64,000 nucleotides of DNA, taken from NCBI GenBank assembly GCA_903955385.1, contig CAJBNH010000158.1:11658-75657 (forward strand), in the 5' to 3' direction. Position 1 is the stretch's first letter, and each line of letters opens with the position of its first letter. The stretch is from an uncultured Myxococcales bacterium. GTDB lineage: Bacteria > Myxococcota_A > UBA9042. Positions 6,678 through 59,126 of this stretch are shown one piece after another. The position numbers and the translations under genes are program-made. Under the pieces are notes generated by a model, which did no database searches, had not been told where the DNA came from, and was given only the letters and a program-made list of their open reading frames with translations.

Positions 6678-6680
6678 GGG

Positions 6681-7655
6681 TCAGCTTCCGCGGGGTTCGG
6701 TGCCGGGCGGCCGCGCAATCGCCTGAAGCATCGCGCGGTCGGCGGCGGAGTAGGGGTCGCGCTTGCGGTCGGCGACTTCGGCGACGAGATCCCGGCCGTC
6801 GGCGGTGGCGGTCAGCCAGCGATGCGCCATGCGGGTACAGGTCTCGCGCACAAGGCCGGTGACGACGAAGGCGGCGCGGGCGCGTTCCCGCTCAGCGCGG
6901 CTGGGGCTGGAGGTCAGGAACTGGCCGTGGCGCAGGATTTCCTCGCCCAACAGGTCGATACCCTCACCCCGCGAGGCGATGGTGCGCACAATGGGCGGCA
7001 TCCACTCAGGCATCTCGGACAGCAGCATTTGCAAGCCGCGTAGATCACTGACCGTTCGGTCGGCGCCATCGGCATCGGCCTTGTTCACCACGAACACGTC
7101 GGCGATCTCGAGGATGCCCGCCTTGATCGCCTGAATGTCGTCGCCCATCCCCGGCACCATCACGACGACGGTGGTGTCGGCGGTGCGCACGATGTCGATC
7201 TCGTCCTGACCCACGCCCACAGTCTCGACCAGCACGACGTCGTAGCCCATCGCGTCCATCACGTGGACCATCTCACTGGTTGACCGCGACAGACCGCCCA
7301 GAGCGCCGCGGGTGGCGAGCGAGCGGATGAAGACGCCGGGGTCGGCTGCGTGCTCCATCATCCGGATGCGGTCGCCCAGGATGGCGCCGCCGGAGAAGGG
7401 GCTGGAAGGATCCACCGCCAGCACGCCGACTTTCAGACCTTGGCGGCGGTAGTGACCGACCAGCCGACTGCACAGCGTGGACTTGCCGGAGCCGGGGTTG
7501 CCGGTCAGACCGATGACGCGCGCGCGGCCGGTGTGGGGGTACAGCAGGCGCAGCACGTCGGTCGCGCCCGGCTCGCGGTCGTCGAGCATGCGCATCAGGC
7601 GGGCGCCCGCGCGAAGGTCTCCAGCGAGGATGGCAGCGGCAGCTTGCTCGCGCAT
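6681..7655 (-). CDS. meaB: G3E-family GTPase MeaB/ArgK (methylmalonyl-CoA mutase-associated metallochaperone)
   Basis: Walker A GLTGNPGSGKSTL and VDPSSPFSGGAILGDRIRM are MeaB signatures. The start overlaps the upstream gene's stop by 1 nt. Confidence 0.85.
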   Translation of the reverse strand: MREQAAAAILAGDLRAGARLMRMLDDREPGATDVLRLLYPHTGRARVIGLTGNPGSGKSTLCSRLVGHYRRQGLKVGVLAVDPSSPFSGGAILGDRIRMMEHAADPGVFIRSLATRGALGGLSRSTSEMVHVMDAMGYDVVLVETVGVGQDEIDIVRTADTTVVVMVPGMGDDIQAIKAGILEIADVFVVNKADADGADRTVSDLRGLQMLLSEMPEWMPPIVRTIASRGEGIDLLGEEILRHGQFLTSSPSRAERERARAAFVVTGLVRETCTRMAHRWLTATADGRDLVAEVADRKRDPYSAADRAMLQAIARPPGTEPRGS

Positions 7656-8524
7656 CAGAACTCGGCGCCGACCTTGACCGTGATCACGTTGAGCCCGTCG
7701 GTGAACGACCGCATGAACTCGGCGCCCAGCTGTGCGCGCATCACGACCGTGCGCAGACCCACCGCGGCGCGGTGTCCCAAGGCCTCAGAGACGTTGCCCC
7801 AGCTGCCAAATTCCTCCACGACGATCACGTCGGGGCGTACCGCATGCTCGTCGGCGAACGTCAGCAGTTGGTGGGTGCCGACGTAGGTATACGTCATCGA
7901 GTAGCCCAGCCACGGCTCCAGCGTCATGACGCCGGCGATGCCGAAAGACTTGGAAATTGCGACGTCGGCGCCCACGATGAACATGTCGACGTCCGAGTTG
8001 CCCAGCACGGTGTTGAGGCTGGCGCGCACGCCCAGATCGGGGATGTACTTGAAGCCGTCGATCAGCGACAGGCCCAGCTCAGCGCCAAAAGCCCACAGGT
8101 CCGAGTCGTTCAGATTCGTCAGCACCGTGCCGATTTGCGCTTGGTGGGGTAGGCCCTTGCGCACCCGCAGCTGTCCACTGGTGACCAGACTCTTGGGGGC
8201 GTCGGCGGCCTTCTGCCAGTACTCGGCTTTGTCGTGGATGCCAATCCAACTGCTCTCGAACGTGGCGCTGTAGCCCAAGGGGCCGCCTGACGCGCCGGGA
8301 CCCAACATGCGGGGCCCCAGGGCGAGTCCGATCTCGCGCATCAGGGAGTTGTAGCCTTCCTGCCGCACGGCTTGCAGCGCCGTCGTCTGGGTGCCCGCGA
8401 AGAATTTCTCCAGGTGCAAGTCCAGCGGTCCGGCGAACGCGGGCAGGGAAAGCCCCATCGTCGCAAGCACGAGCAGTGCGGTGACGAGGACCCGGACCAC
8501 CGATTGCCGCTGCGTTCCACCCAT
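7655..8524 (-). CDS. Putative outer-membrane beta-barrel protein
   Basis: Signal peptide MGGTQRQSVVRVLVTALLVLATMGLSLPAFA/GP. Alternating hydrophobic pattern. Terminal ...KVGAEF ends in the aromatic residue typical of OMP C-termini. Start chosen at the internal ATG (8524) rather than the ORF-track start 8593. Confidence 0.45.
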   Translation of the reverse strand: MGGTQRQSVVRVLVTALLVLATMGLSLPAFAGPLDLHLEKFFAGTQTTALQAVRQEGYNSLMREIGLALGPRMLGPGASGGPLGYSATFESSWIGIHDKAEYWQKAADAPKSLVTSGQLRVRKGLPHQAQIGTVLTNLNDSDLWAFGAELGLSLIDGFKYIPDLGVRASLNTVLGNSDVDMFIVGADVAISKSFGIAGVMTLEPWLGYSMTYTYVGTHQLLTFADEHAVRPDVIVVEEFGSWGNVSEALGHRAAVGLRTVVMRAQLGAEFMRSFTDGLNVITVKVGAEF

Positions 8525-8646
8525 GTGCCGTCTCCGCGCGCGATTGTCGCCGCTCTCCCGCCTGAATGCGGACCGTTGCGGCATTGTGGCCAAGCGTGGC
8601 CGCGATGTCCACAGACAGCCGATACCTGCAGATGGGCCTGTAGAGG

Positions 8647-10083
8647 TCAGCGCGTGGGCAGCCGCGCTCTCGCATTGGTCGCCGCCTCGTCCTTCATGCG
8701 CTGCCGCTCGACGGGATCCGCCCAGCGCGCCTGCACTTCCGGCGCCAGCGTCTCGACCGGGTCAAAGAAATAGAACAGGCGCTCGGGGTCGACGTTGGGG
8801 CTGCGGAACAGCGCGATGCCGTTGTGGCGGTCGTAGTACTCGAAGCTGTGCGCGTCGCGCTTGCCACCGCCGCCCAGCGTGTCGACGACGAAGGTCGGGG
8901 TGTTGAAGCCGGCGGTCGAGCCGCGGACCTCCTTTTCGATGTCGATGGCCGTCTGCAGGGTGGTGCGCAGGTCCTCGACACCCTTGACCAGATCGTGGAC
9001 GTAAACGTAGTAGGGGTGCACGCCGATGTGGCCCAAGCGCTTGACCAGCAGCTTCATCGACTCGGTGGTGTCGTTCACGCCCCGCTGCAGCACCGACTGG
9101 TTGCGCACGAACACGCCCTTTTCCAGCAACTTGCCGATCGCCTCGCGCGTGATCCAGGTGATCTCGTTGGCGTGGTTGAAGTGCGTGTGCAGCACCACGT
9201 CCTTGCGACGGGCGCGGCCGAATTCCACCACGTCGACCAAGGCTTGCGTCCACTCGGTGTCGGTCAGCAGCTTCTGCGGCATCACCGCGGGGCCCTTGGT
9301 GGCGTAGCGCAGGCGCTTGACGTTGGGCAGGTCAAGCAACCGCTCGCCGATCAAGCGGATGTGCTTGGCGGGCAGGTTGTAGACGTCGCCACCCGACAGC
9401 ACGATGTCCTCGAGCTCGGGGCGGCTGGCGATGTAGGCGAAGATGCGCTCCCACCGCGCGGCATCGGCGTTGAGGTGCACCTTGTCGACCATCCCCGTGT
9501 CGAGTCCGACCGCGTAAGAGCGCGTGCAGAAACGGCAATAGACGGGGCAGGTATCCAGCGCCAGAAACAGCGCCTTGTCGGGATAGCGGTGGGTCAGTCC
9601 CGGCACCGGCGAGTCGTCCTGCTCGTGCAGGCTGTCGAGCGTCAGCTCCGGATGGTCGGGCAGCAGGCGTGACGCCAGCGGGATGAACTGCCGACGCAGC
9701 GGGTCCTCGTAGGGCCGCGTCCAGTCGATCAGGCTCATCAGATAGGGGGAAACCCGCACGCTCATGGGCGAATTGGCGAACCCGGCCTCAGCGTCGGCGA
9801 TGAACTCCGCGGGGGCAATGCCCTGAATGGCCTCGAGCAGCTTGTCGATGCGCGTGATCGAGTTGCGGCCCTGCCAGCGAAAGTCCAGGAACGTCGCCTC
9901 GTCCACGTCGCGCCAGGCCGGCAGCGTCTGCCAAAACGCGCCTTCGCGCAGATTGCCGTGCGCCATCGAGCTGGCGGCAGCGGTCGGCCTCACGCGGGCG
10001 GGAGCGGCGATGGAGAGCGTCGGGCCGGACACGTGTCCTCCGATCTGGGTCGCAGCTGCGACGGGTGCGTCGTTCGTGTTCAT
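8647..10083 (-). CDS. KamA-family radical SAM 2,3-aminomutase (lysine/glutamate 2,3-aminomutase-like)
   Basis: LHEQDDSPVPGLTHRYPD and CPVYCRFCTRS (CxxxCxxC) match the lysine 2,3-aminomutase core. A GGGGK motif is present. The C-terminal Zn-Cys cluster of clostridial KamA is absent. Start at the internal ATG 10083. Confidence 0.8.
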   Translation of the reverse strand: MNTNDAPVAAATQIGGHVSGPTLSIAAPARVRPTAAASSMAHGNLREGAFWQTLPAWRDVDEATFLDFRWQGRNSITRIDKLLEAIQGIAPAEFIADAEAGFANSPMSVRVSPYLMSLIDWTRPYEDPLRRQFIPLASRLLPDHPELTLDSLHEQDDSPVPGLTHRYPDKALFLALDTCPVYCRFCTRSYAVGLDTGMVDKVHLNADAARWERIFAYIASRPELEDIVLSGGDVYNLPAKHIRLIGERLLDLPNVKRLRYATKGPAVMPQKLLTDTEWTQALVDVVEFGRARRKDVVLHTHFNHANEITWITREAIGKLLEKGVFVRNQSVLQRGVNDTTESMKLLVKRLGHIGVHPYYVYVHDLVKGVEDLRTTLQTAIDIEKEVRGSTAGFNTPTFVVDTLGGGGKRDAHSFEYYDRHNGIALFRSPNVDPERLFYFFDPVETLAPEVQARWADPVERQRMKDEAATNARARLPTR

Positions 10084-10166
10084 GGAGAGAAGACCTCGCG
10101 AACCCTGGATTTGCTGCGGCCTGGGGGCGGGGGGAGGCATGGCCCGGGCCGGTCCGAGGGAGGTCG

Positions 10167-11414
10167 CTAGGGTACCACGCCGGGGCGGACACCGTCGAGC
10201 AGGCGAGCTCCCAGGTCGCACAGCTCGGCCAGCGTGTGCACGTCGCCCTCGCGCTCGGCGGCGACCGCACAGAAGCCGTGTGGCTCGGAAAGCCTTTGCA
10301 GTGCAACGATGTGCGCTTCGTCAGCCTGGCTTAGATGGTGCAAGCCAGCGGCGGCCTGGTCGAGGCGTCGGCTCATCGCGTCCGCGCTTGCTTCGTCCAT
10401 CCCCGATCGCTGCAGTCGGCCGCGCAGGTCGCCCAACGCAACCTCTCGCCCAGCGCCACCGCCGAAGCCGTCGGGAACCTGCAGCACGCGGTTGACGACA
10501 AATCCGGCGAACGGCAGTCCTTGGCTGCGCAGCTCGGCCTGCAAGTGCCTGGCCTCGCGCAGCGCGGTCGCTCCCGGGGTTGTGACCAGCAGAAATCGCG
10601 TGCCGGGCGAGCGCAGCATCCGGTCAGTCTCTCGGGCGCGCTCGGCCATCTTGGGCATGACATCGCGAAACGACACGAAGAACTGGGCGATGTCCGGCAG
10701 GGTCTCGCCGCCGACCAGCCGACCCATCACGGCCATCGCCATCGAACCGCCGGCCCCCAGCAGCGAGAACTTCTTCTTCTCACCCGGCTGCGGCACCCGC
10801 GAGAACCAGCGCAGGACCCGCTCGTTGATGAAGGCCGACAACGTGCCGCCCGCGTGCAGGAAGTCGACGGCGTTCTGCATCGGTGGCGTGTCCAGCACCA
10901 GCAGGTCGTAGCGGTCTTCAGCCAGCAGCGAGGCGATCAGCTCGAGGGCCACGTAGTCCGGCGACGACGACAGCATCGGCAACAGCGCGCGGTACACCCG
11001 ATTGCCCATCACCTGATCGCGCAGTGAGGGGTCGGGCAGCAGGCGCTCGACCATCAGCTCGGCCCCCGACTCGGCGTCCAGCATCATCGCGTGCAGCGTA
11101 CCGGCGGGAGGATCCTGACCGAGATCGGTCAGTTGGCGCGTCAGGCGCGGCAGGATCTCCAAGGGTGTGTTGGCCGGCACCGCCTCGCCCAGCAGTCCCA
11201 ACGCCTGCAGCAGCCGTTGCGCCGGGTCGATGGTCAGCACCAGCACCCGCCGTCCCATGCACGCCGCGGTCAGCGCCAGTGCCGCCGCCGTCGTGGTCTT
11301 GCCCACGCCACCGCTGCCCGCCAGCACCAGCAGCTTGGTCTGACGCAGCACGTCGGCCAGGGGACCTGGACTGCGCGTGGTTTCGCAAGTCGTGACAGGG
11401 CCTGGGAAGGTCAC
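10167..11414 (-). CDS. ArsA/Get3-family P-loop ATPase (second of tandem pair)
   Basis: LLVLAGSGGVGKTTTAAALA deviant Walker A, followed by LVLTIDPAQ. GTG 11414 overlaps the TGA of the upstream paralog (GTGA). Confidence 0.7.
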   Translation of the reverse strand: MTFPGPVTTCETTRSPGPLADVLRQTKLLVLAGSGGVGKTTTAAALALTAACMGRRVLVLTIDPAQRLLQALGLLGEAVPANTPLEILPRLTRQLTDLGQDPPAGTLHAMMLDAESGAELMVERLLPDPSLRDQVMGNRVYRALLPMLSSSPDYVALELIASLLAEDRYDLLVLDTPPMQNAVDFLHAGGTLSAFINERVLRWFSRVPQPGEKKKFSLLGAGGSMAMAVMGRLVGGETLPDIAQFFVSFRDVMPKMAERARETDRMLRSPGTRFLLVTTPGATALREARHLQAELRSQGLPFAGFVVNRVLQVPDGFGGGAGREVALGDLRGRLQRSGMDEASADAMSRRLDQAAAGLHHLSQADEAHIVALQRLSEPHGFCAVAAEREGDVHTLAELCDLGARLLDGVRPGVVP

Positions 11415-12481
11415 GCGGCGCCCCTGAGCGCGGGGGCCAGCCGTCGGGCCAGCAAGTCGATGGCGTCCAGCGGCAGCTCGCGGCGGAACAGGAAGGGCAG
11501 CTCGAGGACCGGGCGGCCGGTGCGCCGCAGCTCGGGCAGGAAACCTCGCGACTTCCGGTGCCGCTCGCCCAGCAAGCGCGCGGCCCAAAGCCAGCGGTCG
11601 TCCGTCGCCCCAGTCTCGCCAGTCTCCAGCGCGTGCGAAAGCGCGTCGAGTTCGGCAGGATCCAGCAATTCCGGGTACATACCATTCATCACGAACGCGG
11701 CGGCGCGCAAGCCGAAGCGGGACTGCAGGGTGTGGTGCAGCTCCAGCGTCTCGACGACAGGCATCTCCTCGGGTCGCGTCACCAGCATAAGCCCGGTGCG
11801 CTGGCCGTCCGAGAGCAGCTGCTGCATCCCCTCGGCATACGCGGCAACGGGTCCGAACGGCAGCATCTGCGTCAATGCCTTGGGGATCGCGCACATGCCG
11901 ACGACGAAGCCGCTGGTGGGCAGGTCGCACACGATCAGGTCCCAGGTGCGGTCGCCCGACTGACCCTGCTCCGCCTCAAGGCGCCACAGGCGATACAGGA
12001 ACAGAATCGAGCGGATGGCCGGCATCGCCTGAAAGAAGCCCTCGACCGCCTTGTTGCGCAGGGCCAGCTGGACGAGTGCGGGAATGCGGAGCTGTTGCAG
12101 GAAGAACGCGCGCAACGCCTCGTGGGCGTCGATGCGCGCGACCGACAGGTTCGGAGCGACCGAGACGGGCTGTGGACCCAAGGTCTCGAGACCGAACAGC
12201 GGCGCGGCACGAGAGACGGGCTCGACCTCCAGCAGCAAGACACGCTTGCCGGCGTCTGCAGCGGCCCTGGCCAGCGCGAGCGCGACGGTAGACTTGCCCA
12301 CGCCACCCTTGCCGGTAACGAGAAGGACTGAGCGATCCAGAAGCTGCGGAGCTTGCGATAGGTCGGCGGCCCGAGTCGGGTTCAGATGGTCATGGGGTGA
12401 AGGCATTGCCGCAACAGGATAGTCCGCACGCGTCGCCCTCACAACGTCGGCCTGGGTCGCGACGCGGCCTCGATCGGTCAT
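11411..12481 (-). CDS. ArsA/Get3-family P-loop ATPase (first of tandem pair)
   Basis: VLLVTGKGGVGKSTVALALA Walker A. ATG 12481 overlaps the TGA of the upstream membrane protein (ATGA). Confidence 0.7.
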   Translation of the reverse strand: MTDRGRVATQADVVRATRADYPVAAMPSPHDHLNPTRAADLSQAPQLLDRSVLLVTGKGGVGKSTVALALARAAADAGKRVLLLEVEPVSRAAPLFGLETLGPQPVSVAPNLSVARIDAHEALRAFFLQQLRIPALVQLALRNKAVEGFFQAMPAIRSILFLYRLWRLEAEQGQSGDRTWDLIVCDLPTSGFVVGMCAIPKALTQMLPFGPVAAYAEGMQQLLSDGQRTGLMLVTRPEEMPVVETLELHHTLQSRFGLRAAAFVMNGMYPELLDPAELDALSHALETGETGATDDRWLWAARLLGERHRKSRGFLPELRRTGRPVLELPFLFRRELPLDAIDLLARRLAPALRGAA

Positions 12482-13332
12482 CTTCCTTGCTGTGCAGGCA
12501 GTTGTGTTGTGTCGTCGCGGGCGGGCAGCCGGCAATGGCCGTGGTCGTGCAGCCGGCACACCAGCATCGTGGCGCTCACGACCAGAAACGGCACCGTCAG
12601 CGGCACCCAGACGAGCCACTGCGCCGCGAAACCGAAGCCCAGCCAGACCGCGGTCCGGCGCCGCAGTAACGCCAACTGGGCAGCAAGGGGCACGCGGTTG
12701 TTCTCTAGCGCGAATCCAGACATCGTCGCGCCCAGGGCCAGAGCCCCCCAGCCGCCCCCGACCGCGATCGTGAACAGGGCGCCCAGCGGCGCGAAGGCCA
12801 GCGTCAGCACCATACCGACCGCCCAGAGGGCCACGCCGCCGGTCACCTCGATCGCCAGCAGCGCGAGTCCGCGGCCGATGCCTCGCAGCGTCTCGACGGC
12901 AAATGCCCCCCACGTCTGCCCCGGCACCTGCGCGCCGTACCAGCGCTGCTCGACCCGCTCGGCAAGCCAGGCGAACGCGGGCGACAGCACCGGCAGGGCC
13001 ACGGTCGCTGCGAGCACCAACGACGCCAGCCACAGCGCCGCGTACAGCAGCACTCGGCCCACATGCCACAGCGCCACCGCCCACCACGACTCGGGGGCGG
13101 GACCCATCACGGCCGCGACCGCCACGCCGTCCCAAGTCGCGGCGAGCCACAGGAAGGCGACCCAGACCGCCAGGTAGAGCGCCATCGCCAGAGCGGCGAC
13201 CGACAGCAAGTCGCCGTGGCGCAAGGTGAAGCCAAAGCCGGCCCCCGCCGCGCGAAAGCCCGTCCAGGCCTGGTGCAGGGGTGTGCCGGCAAGTGGGTCG
13301 GGACTGCGGGGCGGCGGCGCGGACACAGGCAA
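12478..13332 (-). CDS. Integral membrane protein, EI24/CysZ-like
   Basis: 284 aa with about 6 TM helices rich in W/A/L, matching the overall pattern of the EI24/CysZ family. The family call is tentative. Confidence 0.4.
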   Translation of the reverse strand: MPVSAPPPRSPDPLAGTPLHQAWTGFRAAGAGFGFTLRHGDLLSVAALAMALYLAVWVAFLWLAATWDGVAVAAVMGPAPESWWAVALWHVGRVLLYAALWLASLVLAATVALPVLSPAFAWLAERVEQRWYGAQVPGQTWGAFAVETLRGIGRGLALLAIEVTGGVALWAVGMVLTLAFAPLGALFTIAVGGGWGALALGATMSGFALENNRVPLAAQLALLRRRTAVWLGFGFAAQWLVWVPLTVPFLVVSATMLVCRLHDHGHCRLPARDDTTQLPAQQGR

Positions 13333-13344
13333 CCTCTGGGTGGG

Positions 13345-14031
13345 TCAGGGTGCGAGAGGGAATTCGTGGTCACAAGTCGGGTCATCGCAGGCGCGGGTGA
13401 GCAGCATGCCCTGACGGGCGGACCCCAGCAGCGGCAGGTCCCACGAGCTGTCGCCCAGGGCAAGATCCGCAGGCGGCAGGCCGAGTTGAGTCCAAGCGTC
13501 GACCTTTCCCTGACCAATTGGCACCGGTTCCGCAAAGCGCGCCGGGTCCACGCCCAGACAGTTCACCGCGATCAGGCTGCAGCCCTCGAGCCCGAACAAT
13601 CGCGCGCCCACCTCGACGACCGGCCGCGGCGAGGCCGACACCAGCCACACCTGGACGCCGCGCTGCATCGCCTCGCGCAGCGCCCGCACCAGCCAGCGTC
13701 GGGGCCGCACCCGCTCGCGCAGCGCTGCCTCGACGGGACCCCGCGCGTCGTGGACGTCCACCCGCGCCATCAGCTCGGCCGCGAACCGGCAGCCGCTTGG
13801 ATAGTCCGTGTCCATCTGCCCCATGTACCACGCGAAGTCCGCCTGACCCGGCAGCCATGGCGTGTGGGGCGGCGTCGCGGCAAGCAGGACCACTTCGTCG
13901 CCCACGTCGCCGGCCCACACCGTGTTGTCGGCATCGGTGGCCACGCGCGACCCGCGGGGCAGGGCGGCAAGGGCCTGCACCACCTGGGACGGCGTGGGGT
14001 AACGGAGGATCGACACCTGGGTTTCGTCCAT
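13345..14031 (-). CDS. HAD-superfamily hydrolase (HAD-IB-like)
   Basis: VATDADNTVW matches the DxDxT/V HAD motif I. Lies 12 nt upstream of the membrane-protein gene and is the first gene of the minus-strand operon. Confidence 0.55.
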   Translation of the reverse strand: MDETQVSILRYPTPSQVVQALAALPRGSRVATDADNTVWAGDVGDEVVLLAATPPHTPWLPGQADFAWYMGQMDTDYPSGCRFAAELMARVDVHDARGPVEAALRERVRPRRWLVRALREAMQRGVQVWLVSASPRPVVEVGARLFGLEGCSLIAVNCLGVDPARFAEPVPIGQGKVDAWTQLGLPPADLALGDSSWDLPLLGSARQGMLLTRACDDPTCDHEFPLAP

Positions 14032-14238
14032 GGGGCCTCGGGCGGGGGGCCGGCGAGCGGCGAGGTCGAACGAGCATCGTGCCAGAGGTCCGTCGGGCTG
14101 TCAGCGCCCCGCGCGACCGGCAACTGTCGGGCGGCGGAATGATCGTGTAGGATGCGCTGTTCGCAGCACGTCCAAGTCCGTGCAGCAGGTTGCGTCCGGC
14201 GGTGGACGTCCCAAGCGACCCCCCGGGCAAGAGGTTTC

Positions 14239-15339
14239 ATGGCAGAAGGTCCGATGAGCGTTGGAGGTCAGGCGATCCTCGAGGGCGTCATGATGCGGTC
14301 GCCCCATTCCTTGGCGATCGCCGTACGGCGTGCCAGTGGCGAGATCGTGGTCAAGGAGGCGGCGTGGCACTCGATCTGGGAGAAGGCGCGCTGGCTGCGT
14401 AAGCCCTTCCTGCGCGGCGCCGTCGTGCTGTTCGAGTCGCTGCACAACGGCATCAGTGCGCTGACGTTCAGTGCCAACGAGGCCGCGCGCGAGCTTCCGG
14501 TCGAGGGTGCCGAAGGCAAGCCGGCGGACGCCAAGCCCCCGACCGACAGTGGCGCGTCCAACCTTGCGATTGCGGGCACCATTGCGCTGTCAGTCGCGTT
14601 CGGCTTCGGCATGTTCGCGGCGCTGCCGCACTTCATCACCTGGCTCGCAGGCGTCATGTTGGGCAGTGAGTCGCTTGCGTCCGGCAAGGACTTCGGCTTC
14701 CAGATCGTCGATGGCATCGTCAAGATCGTGTTTCTGGTCGGGTACATGGCGCTGATATCTCGGATGAAGGACATCAAGCGCGTCTTCCAGTACCACGGAG
14801 CCGAGCACAAGAGCATCTACTGCTACGAGGCCGGCCTGCCCTTGACCGTCGCCAATGCCCGCACCTTCTCGCGTCAGCACCCGCGTTGCGGCACCAGCTT
14901 TCTGCTGATCACGGTCGTGGTCTCCATCCTCTTGTTTTCCGTGGTGTTCCCGTTCCTGCCTCGGATCTCGTCGACCGGGTGGCTGAATCAGCTGGCCTAC
15001 GTCTTCATCAAGATCCCCCTGATGTTTCCGGTTGCAGGCATCGCCTACGAGGCTACCCGGCTGTCGGCCCGACATCCTCGCAACCTGTTCGTCCGCGGCT
15101 TTACGTGGCCGGGCCTGATGTTGCAGAACATCACCACCCAAGAGCCGGACGACACCCAGCTCGAGATTGCCCTTGTCGCCCTGCAGAAGACGCTATGGCG
15201 CGAGGCGCAGCTGCAGCAGAACGCTGCCGCCGGCTTGCCTGTGGGCGACGCCGAGCCCTTGGTCTTCCCGACCTACGATGCGTTCGTGTCCAGCATTGCC
15301 ACGTTGCCGCCGCCGCCGGTCGACACCTTGGCGGCCTGA
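14239..15339 (+). CDS. DUF1385-family protein (YqhQ-like)
   Basis: MAEGPMSVGGQAILEGVMMRSP... matches the characteristic DUF1385 N-terminus, followed by TM segments. RBS GAGGT 4 nt upstream. Immediately precedes prfA. Confidence 0.6.
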   Translation: MAEGPMSVGGQAILEGVMMRSPHSLAIAVRRASGEIVVKEAAWHSIWEKARWLRKPFLRGAVVLFESLHNGISALTFSANEAARELPVEGAEGKPADAKPPTDSGASNLAIAGTIALSVAFGFGMFAALPHFITWLAGVMLGSESLASGKDFGFQIVDGIVKIVFLVGYMALISRMKDIKRVFQYHGAEHKSIYCYEAGLPLTVANARTFSRQHPRCGTSFLLITVVVSILLFSVVFPFLPRISSTGWLNQLAYVFIKIPLMFPVAGIAYEATRLSARHPRNLFVRGFTWPGLMLQNITTQEPDDTQLEIALVALQKTLWREAQLQQNAAAGLPVGDAEPLVFPTYDAFVSSIATLPPPPVDTLAA

Positions 15340-51387: not shown

Positions 51388-51428
51388 TTGACGCGCCTCC
51401 AACACGTACGTACGTTATGTACGTACGG
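51388..51428 (+). promoter_or_regulatory. Candidate promoter (-35 TTGACG) overlapping an ACGT-repeat palindrome (CACGTACGTACGTTATGTACGTACGG), the likely operator of the TA pair
   Basis: TTGACG at 51388-51393. The self-complementary ACGT repeat at 51403-51428 ends 10 nt before the antitoxin ATG. Confidence 0.35.
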
Positions 51429-51437
51429 AGGTGTGCG

Positions 51438-51662
51438 ATGACCGTTACGGCAACCGAGCTTCGCGGCAACCTGTACCGCATCCTCGATCAGATCCTCGAG
51501 ACCGGCGAACCGGTCGACATCGTGCGCGGCGGCCGGGTGATTCGCTTGGTCCCCGATCAGGTCCGCTTCCGCGCGGCCGACGTCAAGCCTCATCCCGAGT
51601 ATGTCGCGGGCGACCCCGACGACCTCATTCATCACGATTGGTCGGGCGAATGGACCCCGTAG
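51438..51662 (+). CDS. Type II antitoxin, Phd/YefM-like (VapB-type)
   Basis: 74 aa, ATELRGNLYRILDQILETGEPVDIVRGGRVIRLVP matches the Phd/YefM pattern. RBS GGAGGTG. Confidence 0.6.
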   Translation: MTVTATELRGNLYRILDQILETGEPVDIVRGGRVIRLVPDQVRFRAADVKPHPEYVAGDPDDLIHHDWSGEWTP

Positions 51663-52033
51663 TCCACCTCGACACGCACGTTGTGGCGTGGCTGTATCAG
51701 GGCGACCTCGAGCGCCTGCGCCCGGTGCTCCACCACATGGAAGGACGCCGTCTGGTGGTCGCGCCGATGGTGGTACTCGAGCTGCAGTACCTCTACGAGA
51801 TCAACAGGTTGCAGATTCCGGCGGCGGAGGTTGTCGAGTTTCTGGCGAATAGACACGGCCTGCGCACGTCGGTGCACCCCTTTGCCGACGTGGTCCGCGT
51901 GGCGACCGGCTTGACGTGGACGCGCGATCCGTTTGACCGCCTCATCGCCGCACAGGCTCTGGTGGAAGGGGCCCCCTTGTTGACCGCAGACCGCACCCTG
52001 CTTGCGAACTGTGCCGTTGCGCGGTGGACGTAG
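51650..52033 (+). CDS. PIN-domain toxin (VapC-type ribonuclease)
   Basis: VVHLDTHVVAWL with the first acidic residue, central E, and DPFDRLIAAQAL with the distal Asp. Overlaps the antitoxin 3' end by 13 nt. Confidence 0.65.
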   Translation: MDPVVHLDTHVVAWLYQGDLERLRPVLHHMEGRRLVVAPMVVLELQYLYEINRLQIPAAEVVEFLANRHGLRTSVHPFADVVRVATGLTWTRDPFDRLIAAQALVEGAPLLTADRTLLANCAVARWT

Positions 52034-52127
52034 AAGCGGCACACGACCCGGTTCAACTCGGGCGCGTTCCAGCGTATGCTCCGGCCCCCGCAGCACCCCA
52101 CGCGCTGCAGTCGACCCGGAGTGCGCC

Positions 52128-53285
<1,158 letters not shown>

Positions 53286-53303
53286 CGCAAGGACGGGTGA
53301 ATC

Positions 53304-54455
53304 ATGGACTTTTCGCTCAGTCCCCAAGAAGCGCGCATCGAAGCCGACGCCCGCGCATTTGCCCGCGAGGTGCTGGCGCCCCGTATCGCCGAGACCGATC
53401 TGGGGGCGTTTCCGTTCGAGAGCCTGCGCGAGGCCGGGCGCCGTGGCCTGCTGGGCGTGAAGATCCCCCAGCAGTACGGCGGGTTGGGCGCCTCGATGGT
53501 GGCGCACTGCTCGGTCATTCGCGAGCTGTCGTCGGTCTGCCCCTCGACCACCGTGGCCCTGGCCGTGTCGAACATGGTGGCGGACATGGTGCTGGCGTTC
53601 GGCTCGGAGGCACAGAAAGCCAGCTATCTCAAGCCGTTGTGCAGTGGTGATCTGGTCGTGGGCGCGTTTGCCCTGTCCGAAGCCGGCGCGGGGTCGGACG
53701 CGGCCTCGCTGCGCACCCGGGCCGTCAAGGCGAACCGAGGCGGCGTCGACGGTTACGTGCTGGACGGCAGCAAGATGTGGATCACCAGCGGCGATGTGGC
53801 CGGTCTGGTGCTGGTGATGGCCAAGACCGACCCGTCGGTGGGCGCGCGCGGCATCACGGCGTTTCTGGTCGACAAGGGCACGCCGGGCTTCGAGGTTGGG
53901 CGGCACGAAGAGAAGCTGGGCCTGCGCGGGTCGTCGACCGTGTCGCTATCGTTCACCGACCTGTTCGTGCCCGAGTCGCAGCGGTTGGGGCCCGAGGGGG
54001 CCGGCTTCTCGGTGGCGATGACGGCGCTGGACGGCGGTCGCTGCGGCATCGGCGCGCAGGCGCTGGGCATGGGCCGCTCGGCGCTGGAAGCCTGCGCAAA
54101 GCACGTCGAGCGGCGCAAGGCGGCCGACCGGGCGCAGGGCACCGAACAGCTGACCCAGTTCCGCATCGCCGACATGGCGGTCAAGCTCGAGGCGGCCTGG
54201 TGGATGGTCCTGCGCGCCGCCAGCCTGAAGGACGCGGGCAAGAAGATGTCGCGCGAGGCGGCCATGGCCAAGGTCATGGGCAGCGAGGCCGCGAACGATG
54301 TGTGCCGCATGGCGATGGAGCTGGCAGGGGCTGCCGGCCTGGACCGCACCTCGCCGATTGCCCGGGCTTTCCGCGACGTGCGCGTGAGCCGGATTTACGA
54401 GGGGACGAGCGAGGTGCAGCGGTTGGTGATCGCCCGCAGCCTCGTGCAGCCGTGA
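53304..54455 (+). CDS. Acyl-CoA dehydrogenase
   Basis: ACAD layout. C-terminal [15 protein letters not shown]. Confidence 0.8.
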
Positions 54456-54468
54456 CGTGAGGGGAACC

Positions 54469-54924
54469 ATGACGATGCAGGACAACGCAGAGAAGACCGC
54501 CCGTCGAGGTCGCGTGCTGGTGGGCAAGGTCGGGCTGGACGGCCACGACCGCGGCGCCAAGGTCGTCGCGCGCGCGCTGCGGGACGCCGGATTCGAGGTC
54601 ATCTACACGGGGCTGCATCAGACGCCCGAGATGCTGGTGTCGGCGGCAGTGCAGGAAGACGTCGACATCATTGGGATCTCGATCCTTTCCGGCGCCCACA
54701 ACACGCTGGTGCCGCGGGTGCTGCAGCTGCTGAGCGATCGCAACGCCTCGGACATCTCGGTGTTCGTGGGCGGCATCATCCCCGAGGCCGACATCGGTCC
54801 GCTGATGCAGAAGGGCGTGGCGGCGGTGTTCACGCCCGGTGCGACGCTGCAGTCGATCTCGGCGCAGGTGCGCGAGGTGCTGGAGAAGAAGGGCGTGACG
54901 CTTCTGGGCGCCACCGCCGGCTGA
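54469..54924 (+). CDS. Stand-alone cobalamin-binding domain protein (methylmalonyl/isobutyryl-CoA mutase small-subunit-like)
   Basis: [16 protein letters not shown] carries the DxHxxG B12-binding motif. About 150 aa Rossmann-like. The start is 14 nt after the ACAD stop. Confidence 0.75.
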
Positions 54925-54955
54925 CCCGACCGCGACCCGTGCCTGCGAGGAACCC

Positions 54956-56074
54956 ATGGATTTCGTTGCCGATGAAGCCCAACAGATGATCCGCGAGGCC
55001 GTTCGCGACTTCGCCGAGGGCGCGGTCCGTGCCTCAGCCGGCAAGTGGGACAGTCAGGCCGACCTGCCTGCCAGCGCCATGAAAGAGCTGGGCAATCTCG
55101 GTCTGTTCGGCATGGCGGCGCCAGAGCGTTTGGGTGGCATCGAGCTGGACGCGCAGTCCGTCACGGCGGCTTTGGAAGAGCTGGGCGCGGCTGAGGCCGG
55201 GCTTGCCCAACTGGTTGTCCAGCATGGGCTTTGTCTCGATCACGTGGTGCGGGCCGGCGGGCAGGATGCGGCAGCCAAGCGGCTGGCGTCGGGCAAGCAG
55301 CTGGGCTGTCACGCACACGGTGAGGACGCGGACGACCTGGACTCGGCCGAGGTGAAGACGCAGGCGACCCGCGACGGCGACGGCTGGCGGCTGACGGGAG
55401 AAAAGCCAGCGGTGATAGGGGCTTCACGAGCGTCGCTGGCGGTCGTGACGGCACAGGTCGCGGGCGAGGCCGGGCTGACGGCGTTTCTGGTGCCGCTGGA
55501 CCTGGCGGGTATCTCGCGCAAGCCAGTGGCCGACATGATGGGGCTGCGGACGGCGGGCGCCGCGACGATCCTTTTGCAGGACGCGCAGTTGGACGATGCC
55601 GCGCGGTTGGGTCCGGTCGGTGGTGCGGCGGTGGCGCTGGAGCCGGCGCTGGACACGGCGCGGCTGGGTACGGCGGCGGTGGCCTTGGGCGTGGCCCGTT
55701 CCGCGCTGCGAGAGGCCGGACGCTACAGCCAGGAGCGTCACCAATTCAACAAGCCGATCAGCGCGTTTCAGCCGATCCAGTGGATGATCGCCGATGCCGC
55801 GGTCGAGCTCGAGACGGCGCGGCTGCTGGTGGGACGCGCCGCCTGGCAGGTGTCGCAAGGCAAGCCGTCCGGCGCCGCCATCGCGATGGCCAAGACGCGC
55901 GCCTGCGACGTGGCGATGCGTATCGCCGACCGGGCGATTCAGGTGCTCGGCGGCTATGGCTTCACGACGGACTTTCCGGTCGAGCGGGCTTACCGCGACG
56001 CGGCCGTGCTGAAGCTGCTGCAAGGCTCGGGCGCTTGGCACCGGGTACGGATTGCCCGAAGTCTGGCCCGCTAA
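54956..56074 (+). CDS. Divergent acyl-CoA dehydrogenase-family protein (catalytic Glu motif not conserved)
   Basis: ACAD-like N-terminal and middle regions, but the C-terminus reads LQGSGAWHRVRIARSL in place of YEGTSEIQRLVIAR. Confidence 0.55.
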   Translation: MDFVADEAQQMIREAVRDFAEGAVRASAGKWDSQADLPASAMKELGNLGLFGMAAPERLGGIELDAQSVTAALEELGAAEAGLAQLVVQHGLCLDHVVRAGGQDAAAKRLASGKQLGCHAHGEDADDLDSAEVKTQATRDGDGWRLTGEKPAVIGASRASLAVVTAQVAGEAGLTAFLVPLDLAGISRKPVADMMGLRTAGAATILLQDAQLDDAARLGPVGGAAVALEPALDTARLGTAAVALGVARSALREAGRYSQERHQFNKPISAFQPIQWMIADAAVELETARLLVGRAAWQVSQGKPSGAAIAMAKTRACDVAMRIADRAIQVLGGYGFTTDFPVERAYRDAAVLKLLQGSGAWHRVRIARSLAR

Positions 56075-56246
56075 GCCTTCGACTCGACGCAACTTCCCAA
56101 CTCCTCTGGTCTTTTTCCGGCACGATGCTGGCCCGCGGGCCGTTTTGCCGTGTCGGCGGTTGCGACGCCGGACTGGTAACACGTTCATTCCGAAGGCAAG
56201 TGGGCCATGCGGCTTGACAGGCAGGGGCGGGAAGGCCGACGATCAA

Positions 56247-56270
56247 CTACCTTGTCGATGCATAAGGTAG
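56247..56270. promoter_or_regulatory. Perfect 7-bp inverted repeat CTACCTT-N10-AAGGTAG immediately upstream of the RBS of the SHMT-aldolase gene
   Basis: Read directly. The loop contains the ATGCAT palindrome. The GGAG RBS follows at 56277. Confidence 0.35.
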
Positions 56271-56289
56271 ACAACTGGAGCCCCACGCG

Positions 56290-58164
56290 ATGACCCTGAC
56301 CCTGCACGAGATCGATGCCCTGATTCGCGAAGAAGAGGCGGAAGACCGCGACTTCGTTCACTTGACGTCGAATGAGACCCTGATGTCGCCGCTGGCCAGC
56401 CAGGTGCTGTCGTCGCCGCTGGGCAACCGCTATCTGCTGGAACACATCGACATGCGGCAGGACTCGCCCTCGCGGCTGAACGGCTTTCTGTTCAGGGGCT
56501 TGGACCGCGTCAACGCCATCGAGCGGTCGGCCATCGAGGTGTGTCGCCAGATGTTCGCCGCCGAGCAGGTCGAGCTGCGCTGCATCTCGGGTCTGCACGC
56601 CATGCAGACGACGATGGTGTCGCTGACCGAGCCGGGCGACGTGGTCATGCGCTTTGGTGTGGCGGACGGCGGGCACTTCGCGACCGAGAACATCATCAAG
56701 CTCTACGGGCGCAAGAGCAGCACGTACGGGTTCGACCGCGAGCGGCTGACCATCGACCTGGACGCCACGGAGCAGATCTTCAAGCGCGACCGGCCCAAGC
56801 TGCTGTACCTCGATGCGATGAACTACCTGTTTCCGTTCCCGATTCGCCAGCTGCGCGAGATCGTCGGCGACACGCCCATCCTGTACGACGCGAGCCACAC
56901 GCTGGGCCTGATCGCGGGCGGCCAGTTCCAGAACCCGCTGCTGGAGGGCGCCGACATCCTGCAGGCCAACACGCACAAGACGTTTTTCGGCCCGCAGAAA
57001 GGCATCATCCTGGCCCGCAACCGGGAGCTGCTCGAGCGGGTCAGCTACAGCCTGTCGCAGGGTCTGGTGTCGAGCCAGCACACCGCGTCGCTGCTGTCGC
57101 TGTGCATCGCCCTGCACGAGATGCAGCAGGTGGGGCCTGCCTTTGCCCGTCAGGTGATCGCCAACGCCCGCTATCTGGCTGCGCGCATGGCGGACGCCGG
57201 GCTGCCGGTGCTGGCGCGCTCGGACGGCGAGCACACGGCCAACCACCACTTCTTCCTCGACATGACCGGGCGAACCTCTGCCAGCCACGCGATGGAGCGG
57301 TTGCTGCGGGCCCATCTGTCGGTGCAGCGCGGTGTGCCGTTTCGCAATGTCGATGGGCTGCGCGTAGGCGTCCAAGAGATCACGCGGCGCGGCTACACCT
57401 ACGGGGATCTGGACCGCATCGCCGAGTGGTTCGCCGCCATCGTGCTGGGCGGGACGCCGCCTGAGGAAATTGCCCCGCTGGTGATTGCGCTTGCGCGCAG
57501 CCGACGCGACATCCTGTTCACCGGCGACGCGCCCAGTGTGACCGCAGCGGCGGTCGCGTCGCCGGTCGCCACCGTCGGGCCAAGAGACGCCGTTGCCGAT
57601 GCCGGTGACCGCTGGGTCGACTTCGAGCGTCAGCCCGAGCCGTTCCAGATCGAGGACCAGACGGTGTTGCAGATCAGGGAGTTGGGAGCCCTGGCGGGTG
57701 CGTTCCCCAACCAGACCGACGCCACCGGCAACCTGAGTGCGCGCGACGGCGACGACGTGCTGGTCACGACCAGCGGCTGCTACATCAAGCACCTGGAAGC
57801 CCACCACTTTGTTCGGCTGCTGAACTATCGCGACGGCGTGCTGCAGTACGCGGGCACCGGCGTGCCGTCGTCCGAGTCGCTGATGCACTTCCTGATCTAC
57901 CAGACGACCGCTGCGGGTGCGGTGGCGCACACCCACTACCTGCTGTCGAATCAGGAGGCAGAGGCGCTGGGAGTGGCGATTGTGCCGCCGCAGGAGTATG
58001 CGTCGGTCGAGCTGGCGCGCCGGGTGGCCGAGGCTTGCCGGACGCACGCGATTGTCTACGTCCAAAAGCACGGTCTGATCTTCCACGCGCCGGACATCGA
58101 TGCCTGTCGCCTAGCCGTTGCCAAATTTATCCAGCAGAGTCAGGAACTTCGCCATGCCGACTGA
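56290..58164 (+). CDS. Two-domain PLP enzyme: SHMT-like (fold type I) N-terminus fused to a class II aldolase/adducin C-terminus, the 4-fluorothreonine/L-threonine transaldolase architecture
   Basis: N-terminus has LTSNETLMSP and the PLP-Lys context QANTHKTFFGPQKGI of serine hydroxymethyltransferase. Residues ~450-624 carry class II aldolase signatures (GNLSARDGDDVLVTTSG, SSESLMHFLIY, HTHYLLS). Confidence 0.7.
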   Translation: MTLTLHEIDALIREEEAEDRDFVHLTSNETLMSPLASQVLSSPLGNRYLLEHIDMRQDSPSRLNGFLFRGLDRVNAIERSAIEVCRQMFAAEQVELRCISGLHAMQTTMVSLTEPGDVVMRFGVADGGHFATENIIKLYGRKSSTYGFDRERLTIDLDATEQIFKRDRPKLLYLDAMNYLFPFPIRQLREIVGDTPILYDASHTLGLIAGGQFQNPLLEGADILQANTHKTFFGPQKGIILARNRELLERVSYSLSQGLVSSQHTASLLSLCIALHEMQQVGPAFARQVIANARYLAARMADAGLPVLARSDGEHTANHHFFLDMTGRTSASHAMERLLRAHLSVQRGVPFRNVDGLRVGVQEITRRGYTYGDLDRIAEWFAAIVLGGTPPEEIAPLVIALARSRRDILFTGDAPSVTAAAVASPVATVGPRDAVADAGDRWVDFERQPEPFQIEDQTVLQIRELGALAGAFPNQTDATGNLSARDGDDVLVTTSGCYIKHLEAHHFVRLLNYRDGVLQYAGTGVPSSESLMHFLIYQTTAAGAVAHTHYLLSNQEAEALGVAIVPPQEYASVELARRVAEACRTHAIVYVQKHGLIFHAPDIDACRLAVAKFIQQSQELRHAD

Positions 58165-59083
58165 GCCGCGTTCGCTGCACGTTCGCACGCCCCTGTGGCG
58201 CTCGCTGCCGATCTCGCGGGCGGCGGGCTGTCCGGTGTCGTTGAAGATGGAGGCGTTGCAGCCCGACGGGTCGTTCAAGATCCGCGGCATCGGCCGGCTG
58301 TGCGCGCAGGTTGTCGCCAACGGCACGCGGCATCTGGTGTCGGCCTCGGGGGGCAACGCCGGGATTTCGACCGCCAGCGCTGCGCGGGAACTCGGCGTGC
58401 GCGCGACGATCTTCGTGTTCGACGGGGTGCCGCCGACCGCGCTGGAGCGCATTCGCGATCAGGGGGCTGAGGTCGTGCAGGCCGGTGCCACCTGGGCCGA
58501 CGCCAACCGCGCGGCGATTCGAGCTGCGGAAGCGCCGGACTCCTTCTACGTCCATCCCTTTGATCACCCTGAGATTTGGACCGGTCACTCCACACTGGTC
58601 GACGAGATCGTCGCCGACGGCCTGCGCCCGTCGCACATGGTGCTTGCAGTGGGCGGCGGCGGTCTGCTGGCCGGTGTGCTGCAGGGGCTGGATCGTCACG
58701 GGCTGCAGGACGCGCAGATCATCGCCGTCGAGACCGAGGGGACGGCCTCGCTGCACGCGGCGCTGCAGGCGGGTCAGCTGGTGCGACTGGCCAAGATCTC
58801 GTCGGTGGCCAAGACGTTGGGCGCGGACCAGGTGGCGGCCGGGGCTTTCGAGCGGGCCCTTGCCCATCGGGTCGAGTCGATCGTCGTGACGGACGACCAG
58901 GCGCTCTCTGCCGTGCATCGATTCGCCTTGGACCATCGCGTGTTGGTGGAACCGGCGGCGGGTGCGGCGCTGGCGGTGGCCTACGAGTCGCTGGGGTCGA
59001 TCGGTCAGGCGCAGCACGCAGTCATCGTCGTGTGTGGTGGCGCGGGCATCGCGTTGGCTGAGCATCCCTTCACCTATCGGTAG
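58154..59083 (+). CDS. PLP-dependent dehydratase of the threonine/serine dehydratase family (fold type II)
   Basis: PLP-Lys motif GSFKIRG and glycine-rich loop SASGGNAG, ~310 aa (catabolic threonine dehydratase size). The start overlaps the upstream gene's 3' end by 11 nt. Confidence 0.7.
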   Translation: MPTEPRSLHVRTPLWRSLPISRAAGCPVSLKMEALQPDGSFKIRGIGRLCAQVVANGTRHLVSASGGNAGISTASAARELGVRATIFVFDGVPPTALERIRDQGAEVVQAGATWADANRAAIRAAEAPDSFYVHPFDHPEIWTGHSTLVDEIVADGLRPSHMVLAVGGGGLLAGVLQGLDRHGLQDAQIIAVETEGTASLHAALQAGQLVRLAKISSVAKTLGADQVAAGAFERALAHRVESIVVTDDQALSAVHRFALDHRVLVEPAAGAALAVAYESLGSIGQAQHAVIVVCGGAGIALAEHPFTYR

Positions 59084-59126
59084 GCGCAGGCACACGGCGT
59101 CGCGAACGCCGTCCGAGGGAGGCCCC

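Follow-up and report, generated by a model that had tools for sequence, protein, structure and literature searches.

Fluorothreonine transaldolase (FTase) is known from just a few fluorometabolite producers. The Streptomyces enzyme combines a serine hydroxymethyltransferase (SHMT)-like domain, which binds pyridoxal 5'-phosphate (PLP), with a Zn-binding class II aldolase-like domain. Here we describe a homologue with the same architecture and the same PLP-site residues, encoded in a 64,000-nucleotide stretch of DNA from an uncultured Myxococcales bacterium (GenBank assembly GCA_903955385.1, contig CAJBNH010000158.1, positions 11,658 to 75,657 of the forward strand), hereafter called the window. 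Whereas the Streptomyces FTase is an actinomycete protein, the window protein belongs to a metagenome-assembled genome (MAG) of Myxococcota and has no fluorinase, FlK or FthB-like gene nearby. On the TIGR04506 profile the Streptomyces and Nocardia FTases reach 1207 bits and the window protein 774, and in the subclade to which the latter belongs the gene is always followed by that of a Ser/Thr ammonia-lyase. We show that this subclade is coherent and is defined by an obligate dehydratase partner and by the absence of a fluorinase in its vicinity.

The order of a carbon-carbon bond-forming enzyme and a dehydratase has a parallel in the β-hydroxyaspartate cycle, in which BhcC forms the C-C bond, the PALP-type dehydratase BhcB follows and BhcD acts last. 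The order of steps is the same, and one subclade lineage (P0014) adds an OCD/mu-crystallin protein; however, BhcC is an aldolase, whereas the subclade uses a fold-type I transaldolase instead. Membership in the cycle was rejected, as the BhcB model scores 86-123 bits against a cutoff of 550 and the BhcD model 186 against 500, and the comparison is kept as an analogy only. The single-domain L-threonine transaldolase ObiH/ObaG (Protein Data Bank (PDB) entry 7K34) shares the fold of the PLP domain and the threonine retro-aldol/glycyl-quinonoid chemistry, but lacks the aldolase-like domain, is 26-27% identical in structural alignment and uses aryl aldehydes in antibiotic biosynthesis; equivalents of its residues H131, D204, K234 and R366 (PMC10495429) are conserved in the window protein. 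For the second step, removal of fluorine from 4-fluorothreonine by a threonine deaminase has been reported (Wu & Deng 2020, Org Biomol Chem 18:6236, as relayed in PMC11777429 and PMC10324308). As relayed there, that enzyme is a fold-type II PLP ammonia-lyase whose action on 4-fluorothreonine releases fluoride, as we propose for the partner described here; it is a general threonine deaminase performing a side reaction, whereas the window partner is of the SDS type and genetically fixed to the FTase homologue. Finally, a single Gram-negative orphan FTase homologue has been described from Candidatus Kentron, and its metabolic significance was called unclear (PMC7162832). This protein (Ca. Kentron sp. 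DK, VFJ60022, lineage P0027), whose host lacks flA, fthB and fthC (PMC7162832), falls into the same non-actinomycete group of our tree as the window protein, but at 52% identity lies outside the dehydratase-linked clade. No FTase-dehydratase or FTase-CrcB operon was described in the literature that we searched.

An FTase subclade with an obligate dehydratase partner

Gene neighbourhoods were gathered from genome, metagenome and read-assembly collections. A scan of the genome collection with full-length alignment returned 80 loci, 4 of which were true FTases, and the peptide patterns used also match archaeal-type SHMTs; a scan of the metagenome collection with alignment of the C-terminal domain yielded 7 true FTase loci. 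We define the subclade by an identity of at least 62% to the window protein. It spans 13 lineages, the window's own included (the window with L001, P0002, P0003/L088, P0004, P0005, P0008, P0009, P0013, P0014/L086, P0015, P0016, L006 and L009), and its named sources are Myxococcales, Myxococcota or 'Deltaproteobacteria' MAGs. A gene for an SDS-type dehydratase lies directly 3' of the FTase homologue in all 13 lineages, and in nine of the eleven with called gene coordinates the reading frames share 8-11 nt; in the window, the ATG of the dehydratase and the stop codon of the FTase homologue overlap by 11 nt. No fluorinase, FlK or FthB-like tRNA_edit gene was found within 8-10 kb in any of the 13 lineages, fthC not having been searched for. 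The FTase homologue and the dehydratase are a conserved, usually translationally coupled two-gene module.

Farther away in the family the picture is mixed. Among FTases at ~50-54% identity to the window protein, four of the seven examined loci are fluorinase clusters, with a fluorinase and an FthB-like tRNA_edit gene beside the FTase in Nocardia brasiliensis (L007), Paractinoplanes deccanensis (L008) and two metagenomic loci (L087 and L094), and P0047 and L091 are orphan FTases with neither a dehydratase nor a fluorinase partner. In a neighbour-joining tree the dehydratase-linked FTases form a monophyletic clade (60 of 60 bootstraps) within a non-actinomycete group (49 of 60 bootstraps) that also contains the fluorinase-linked P0018 subclade. 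One group of the puzzling homologues in non-producers (PMC7162832) is hence a coherent clade and not a stray gene.

The partner of the window protein is a predicted PLP-dependent L-serine/L-threonine ammonia-lyase with the PLP-lysine motif GSFKIRG in its translation. Among proteins of solved structure it is closest to L-serine dehydratase/L-threonine deaminase of rat and human (SDS and SDSL; E = 7e-74 to 3e-69), whereas matches to IlvA- or TdcB-type threonine deaminases are far weaker (1e-20 to 1e-30). It passes no NCBIfam model (NF006094, 212 bits versus a cutoff of 331). The dehydratases paired with FTase homologues are the 21 best matches to the window dehydratase, at 58-96% identity, and below them thousands of L-serine/L-threonine ammonia-lyases continue at 50-56% without a large gap.

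Three observations on other branches are recorded here in their own right. The metagenomic locus L087 (Logan SRR30196876, P0018 lineage) holds at 3788-15138 a compact cluster of tRNA_edit, FlK, FTase, Na+/H+ exchanger and fluorinase genes, together with an extra threonyl-tRNA synthetase, an aspartate kinase and a homoserine dehydrogenase; its fluorinase shares ~70% identity with its counterparts at the Nocardia and Paractinoplanes loci. The additional threonyl-tRNA synthetase and the genes for threonine supply stand out. At L093 (JGI Ga0209373_10000434, P0031 lineage), whose FTase homologue is 52% identical to the window protein, a distant fluorinase/SAM_HAT member (14440-15225; 21% identity to fluorinase, E = 1e-13) is encoded 4 kb downstream and could be either a divergent halogenase or an unrelated DUF62 enzyme. 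In P0112 and P0114, an N-terminal threonine-synthase-like PALP part is fused to a single-domain TTA/SHMT-like domain that scores 329 bits on TIGR04506, over the S domain only. This fusion suggests that threonine supply is linked to transaldolase chemistry in another lineage; it was rejected as Rosetta-stone support for coupling to a dehydratase, the PALP part being threonine-synthase-like and only 25% identical to the window partner.

Family assignment and domain architecture

The sequence-only reading had called the window protein a fluorothreonine/L-threonine transaldolase-type enzyme, and profile searches agree. The protein scores 773.6 bits on the equivalog TIGR04506 'fluorothreonine transaldolase' (cutoff 650) over profile positions 1-604 of 609, and alignment to the S. 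cattleya FTase (P0074), one of the checks proposed with that reading, gives 50% identity across 97% of its length with the catalytic residues kept. A canonical GlyA would be expected to be a single-domain protein of ~420 aa and to exceed the cutoff of 335 bits of model NF000586; the window protein, at 624 aa and with an extra domain, reaches 221.9. Comparison by eye, as opposed to a computed alignment, shows that the site of the folate-dependent Glu (E. coli E57) reads NRYLLEH versus NKYAEGY. Models of stand-alone class II aldolases and epimerases (FucA, MtnB, AraD) all fail as well, the best scoring 52.9 against 300 bits and fucA 29.5 against 400. The protein is not a canonical GlyA, and its C-terminal domain matches Aldolase_II and the metal site of FucA. 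Judged by its sequence, it is a genuine, intact member of the fluorothreonine transaldolase family.

This assignment is correct but not new, because the identical protein sequence already bears the name 'fluorothreonine transaldolase' in NCBI, JGI and ENA records; one member of its database cluster comes from 'MAG: Myxococcota bacterium'. The name itself has to be read with care. TIGR04506 scores grade from 1207 bits for S. cattleya and N. brasiliensis through 909 for P0018 to 770-780 in the clade linked to the dehydratase, with orphans at 703-816 and the fluorinase-linked enzymes spanning 909-1207. The cutoff is therefore low enough to admit the two-domain family as a whole, and for the orphan branches 'fluorothreonine transaldolase' is an extrapolation.

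The fusion of an SHMT-like to a class II aldolase-like domain is borne out by both profiles and a structure model. All 624 codons and the TGA stop lie in one unbroken frame, with a G+C content at third codon positions of 0.88, similar to that of the surrounding genes. Matches above the Pfam gathering score are found to SHMT (PF00464, aa 6-380, 1.2e-29) and to class II aldolase/adducin (PF00596 Aldolase_II, aa 478-607, 4.7e-16). The motifs quoted from the translation are all present, at aa 25-34 (LTSNETLMSP), 229-239 (HKTFFGPQKGI), 480-487 (GNLSARDG), 527-534 (SSESLMHF) and 547-551 (HTHYL). An AlphaFold2 model built with 31 homologues (mean predicted local distance difference test (pLDDT) 87.6, predicted template-modelling score 0.87) comprises two folded domains and a disordered linker. 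Foldseek searches of the PDB with the N-terminal domain return M. jannaschii SHMT (template-modelling score 0.87 on the target) and ObiH (7K34) at the top, and no entry matches the two-domain protein over its full length; therefore no FTase structure has been solved. Because more than 90 full-length homologues share the layout and the model shows two linked domains, a frameshift or two separate genes, named beforehand as a way in which the prediction could fail, is excluded. The suspected high-GC, non-actinomycete host was also right, the G+C content being 67.4% and the closest named relatives Myxococcota/Myxococcales MAGs.

Conserved active-site and metal-site residues

Conservation was read from an alignment of 98 family members, comparing the window's clade with the rest. 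In the PLP site, Y48, S100/G101/H103, H129, D200, H203, T228-H229-K230, K237, R358 and R366 are invariant or nearly so, and H129, D200, H203, T228-H229-K230, K237 and R366 are kept in all 17 clade members; K230 (codon 56977-56979) is the Schiff-base lysine. In the A domain, N481, E529, H547, H549, E569 and H594 are (near-)invariant inside and outside the clade alike. When the C-terminal domain is aligned as a profile, E529, H547, H549, H594 and N481 fall on the site of E. coli L-fuculose-phosphate aldolase (FucA), where we take the counterparts to be E73, H92, H94, H155 and N29, respectively. Mutagenesis of the Zn-bound FTaseMA from Streptomyces sp. MA37 showed that N484, H551, E573 and H598 matter (PMC7162832), and these residues correspond to N481, H547, E569 and H594 of the window protein. 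Both the PLP lysine and the aldolase metal histidines, whose conservation the sequence-only reading had singled out for checking, are thus retained (K230, H547, H549 and H594). By its residues, the enzyme is catalytically intact, with a complete FTase-type active site and metal site. Just 4 of its 624 positions set the clade apart from other family members (S27 for A, G65 for N, A331 for G and L343 for I), and the pocket is therefore essentially that of an enzyme for L-threonine and a very small aldehyde.

One published assay seems to contradict an intact active site. DbTTA (MBI5609283, from a Deltaproteobacteria bacterium), taken from the FTase cluster, was reported to be inactive (PMC10495429). 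The cloning primers encode LTNNRE... and ...AVYAS followed by a stop, and these match exactly the termini of P0103, a partial protein of 382 aa whose sequence starts just past the THK...GPQKGIIL motif. The construct hence lacked ~240 N-terminal residues, the PLP lysine included. Because it was such a truncated fragment, its inactivity is uninformative for the clade, and the sole published negative assay should be disregarded whichever substrate the clade proves to use. Frameshift fusion or a pseudo-enzyme, for which this report would be the only argument, has a negligible probability in view of the single frame, the homologues of the same layout, the intact catalytic residues, the confident two-domain model and the missing PLP lysine of the construct.

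A proposed two-step module for aldehyde breakdown

The sequence-only reading had left the transformation as either biosynthetic or catabolic. A catabolic or detoxifying role is favoured because the window holds no fluorinase, FlK or FthB-like gene and the partner is a catabolic-type ammonia-lyase; the subclade enzyme does not look like part of fluorometabolite biosynthesis. Our preferred interpretation, with a probability of roughly 40%, is that the two enzymes work in sequence to detoxify or catabolize a small hydrated aldehyde, for which fluoroacetaldehyde is the foremost candidate. As judged from the Streptomyces enzyme, the PLP domain would cleave L-threonine to acetaldehyde and a PLP-bound glycyl quinonoid and would then join the glycyl unit to a small acceptor aldehyde, and the Zn-type domain would serve a heavily hydrated aldehyde substrate. 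By this analogy, we infer that the window protein may convert L-threonine and fluoroacetaldehyde to 4-fluorothreonine and acetaldehyde. The dehydratase would deaminate the β-hydroxy amino acid product at once to a 2-oxo acid and ammonia. The overall scheme would then be L-Thr + R-CHO -> acetaldehyde + β-hydroxy amino acid -> 2-oxo acid + NH3, with the net effect that a reactive α-substituted acetaldehyde is turned into ordinary metabolites and no toxic threonine analogue builds up. In the lineage of the window, fluoroacetaldehyde and 4-fluorothreonine would be the substrate pair, and the released fluoride would be exported by CrcB.

The tight coupling of the two genes would make sense if the intermediate were toxic, as 4-fluorothreonine is; producers of this amino acid are protected by the deacylase FthB. 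Thus, fluorometabolite producers combine FTase with an editing deacylase, whereas the subclade combines it with an enzyme that would destroy the product and has no FthB nearby. Fluoroacetaldehyde and 4-fluorothreonine are pointed to because CrcB ends the operon in the window lineage. Fluc channels carry the motifs GGxxGxxxRY, an N-containing second transmembrane helix and TTxSTF, all of which are satisfied by the window CrcB (LGGAVGTGARY ... IVNVLGSF ... GGLTTYSTF). It begins with a GTG after GAGGGAGG, 43 nt past the dehydratase stop, and the order FTase-dehydratase-CrcB is retained in the strain-level relatives L001-L004. By our own estimate, the probability that chance alone would place crcB right beside the pair in any of ~13 lineages is below about 1% (roughly 0.5-1%, assuming random order and 1-2 copies per several thousand genes; the figure is post hoc and not computed). 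A link to fluorine is also favoured by the position of the clade in a group shared with the fluorinase-linked P0018 subclade and by the reported defluorination of 4-fluorothreonine. If fluoroacetaldehyde or 4-fluorothreonine is indeed degraded, the module would be a natural and compact pathway by which a fluorinated amino acid loses its fluorine, and natural organofluorines would be more widespread than the known producers imply.

Several findings weigh against this interpretation. Both downstream genes announced by the sequence-only reading are real, but the fluoride channel adjoins the pair in only 1 of the 13 lineages, namely in the window's own species-level lineage (at least 97% identity). 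In a relative of 82% identity a convergent TauD-like gene takes the place where CrcB would be, and tblastn (E<=10) detected no CrcB near other family members at 15 loci. The third gene differs by lineage, encoding a GNAT acetyltransferase in P0008, an amine-oxidase-like flavoprotein in P0015 and P0016, an OCD/mu-crystallin protein in P0014 and Sulf_transp/DUF6691 membrane proteins in P0005. Rfam, including the fluoride riboswitch RF01734, has no match at gathering score in the whole window and none at E<=5 over 55900-59700, and the riboswitch is absent by Rfam from ten related loci. The window contains no further fluorine-related gene, the route would spend one threonine per aldehyde, and we know of nothing in nature that would supply fluoroacetaldehyde to these uncultured Myxococcota. 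What the A domain does has been put forward in the literature as no more than a proposal, and the sole clade member ever assayed is the DbTTA fragment. Somewhat less likely than our preferred interpretation is the stronger claim that organofluorines are broken down in nature by a dedicated route encoded by the FTase-dehydratase(-CrcB) operon. If it were true, freshwater and soil communities would contain enough fluorometabolites to have selected for a counter-pathway in Myxococcota, and the 'orphan' FTases of non-producers would serve in resistance or catabolism instead of representing silent genes for biosynthesis.

As to the variable third genes, the OCD/mu-crystallin gene (L086:13331-14311) scores 227 bits to archaeal alanine dehydrogenase and 186 bits to the iminosuccinate reductase BhcD, and L129:5781-6992 is another variable gene that follows an FTase-dehydratase pair. 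These genes may reflect lineage-specific product handling or may be chance neighbours.

Chloroacetaldehyde and glycolaldehyde are strongly hydrated, as the substrate of the Zn-type domain is proposed to be. FTaseMA accepts both, as well as other aldehydes (PMC8072733), and for this reason detoxification of a hydrated but non-fluorinated aldehyde by the same two steps is nearly as likely as our preferred interpretation. The acceptor might be glycolaldehyde, chloroacetaldehyde, formaldehyde or possibly glyoxylate, and from the matching product (4-hydroxythreonine, 4-chlorothreonine, serine or 3-hydroxyaspartate) the dehydratase would form a 2-oxo acid; the adjacency of CrcB would be coincidental. 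This is consistent with the 12 lineages in which CrcB is not adjacent, with the missing fluoride riboswitch, with the membership of the partner in a broad L-serine/L-threonine ammonia-lyase family and with the OCD/mu-crystallin gene of P0014, which recalls the aldolase-dehydratase-imine reductase order of the β-hydroxyaspartate cycle. On the other hand, the BhcB and BhcD scores fall far short of their cutoffs, a co-oriented crcB neighbour is improbable by chance on the above estimate, and the characterized relatives all handle fluorometabolites. Furthermore, the pocket barely differs from that of fluorinase-linked FTases and gives no sign of a new substrate. Were the substrate non-fluorinated, the annotation 'fluorothreonine transaldolase' would be over-specific for much of the family, and the clade would still be a source of biocatalysts from aldehyde to 2-oxo acid.

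The two enzymes might instead act in parallel on serine and threonine, the FTase homologue as a threonine aldolase that forms glycine and acetaldehyde, and the dehydratase yielding pyruvate and 2-oxobutyrate. L-threonine can bind both enzymes, the solved structures closest to the dehydratase are those of L-serine/threonine dehydratases, and genes for acetate kinase and phosphotransacetylase lie downstream in one lineage. However, parallel catabolism leaves unexplained why the Zn site of the A domain is strictly conserved, why the genes overlap by 8-11 nt and why CrcB is present, and we consider it improbable.

Still less probable is a genuine biosynthetic 4-fluorothreonine transaldolase with the fluorinase and the remaining pathway elsewhere in the genome. 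S. cattleya, whose FTase gene and flA are unlinked (PMC7162832), sets a precedent for such an arrangement, and both the equivalog-level match to TIGR04506 and the adjoining fluoride channel gene would fit. Yet the obligate partner is of the ammonia-lyase kind known to destroy 4-fluorothreonine, the clade scores of 770-780 bits are well under those of fluorinase-linked enzymes, and fluorinase, FlK and FthB-like genes are missing both from the 64-kb window and from within 8-10 kb in the 13 lineages.

Organization of the operon and its surroundings

The coordinates of the operon and its parts are collected in Table 1. A scan of 55900-59900 found no σ70-like promoter and no terminator-like site, and the operon structure therefore rests on gene spacing. 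The inverted repeat in the leader could be an operator or a hairpin in the 5' untranslated region; in an alignment of the upstream regions of seven lineages, no leader element besides the ribosome-binding site is conserved.

Table 1. Features of the FTase-dehydratase-CrcB operon (window coordinates)
Feature	Position	Strand	Evidence and remarks
Intergenic leader, 215 nt	56075..56289	+	Upstream of operon; ribosome-binding site TGGAG at 56276-56280
Perfect 7-nt inverted repeat CTACCTT-N10-AAGGTAG	56247-56253 and 56264-56270	+	20-43 nt before FTase start, just before ribosome-binding site
FTase-family L-threonine transaldolase gene	56290..58164	+	TIGR04506 773.6 bits; 624 aa plus TGA
S domain, SHMT-like fold-type I PLP domain	56290..57531	+	aa 1-414; Pfam SHMT, Foldseek, residue conservation
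Inter-domain linker, predicted disordered	57532..57603	+	aa 415-438; pLDDT <50
A domain, class II aldolase-like metal domain	57607..58161	+	aa 440-624; Pfam Aldolase_II, FucA profile alignment
Metal-site codons	E529 57874-57876; H547 and H549 57928-57936; H594 58069-58071
SDS-type PLP L-serine/L-threonine ammonia-lyase, 309 aa	58154-59083	+	PF00291 PALP 6.3e-70
CrcB/Fluc fluoride channel, 129 aa	59127-59516	+	PF02537 92.3 bits versus cutoff 32.9

Searches of the 64-kb window and of clade loci by tblastn with the fluorinase, FlK, tRNA_edit protein and Na+/H+ exchanger from locus L087 found no fluorinase, FlK, FthB-like tRNA_edit or Na+/H+ exchanger gene, whereas L007, L008, L087 and L094, used as controls, do carry them; fthC was not searched for. 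The other genes are those of an ordinary chromosome, among them RelA/SpoT, ornithine carbamoyltransferase, BipA, TyrRS and MeaB.

Directly upstream of the operon (52002-56074), genes for three paralogous acyl-CoA dehydrogenases, 29-42% identical to one another, flank that of a protein made up of a lone B12-binding domain, of the type found at the C terminus of methylmalonyl-CoA mutase; the gene for the MeaB GTPase lies distant from the latter, at 6681-7655(-). This arrangement is conserved in strain-level relatives only, and the acyl-CoA dehydrogenases and the B12-binding protein were rejected as members of the system, as they are not next to the pair in other lineages. Between the thioredoxin and acyl-CoA dehydrogenase genes, an 81-aa open reading frame (51417-51662) has a weak match to Phd/YefM antitoxins (26.4 bits, under the gathering score of 29.8). 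Downstream of CrcB, 59559-61424 holds a 281-aa open reading frame, a stretch of which weakly resembles NifU/IscU, as well as the gene for a GGGtGRT-family protein (PF14057, 633 bits); a radical-SAM protein gene occupies 62636-64000(-).

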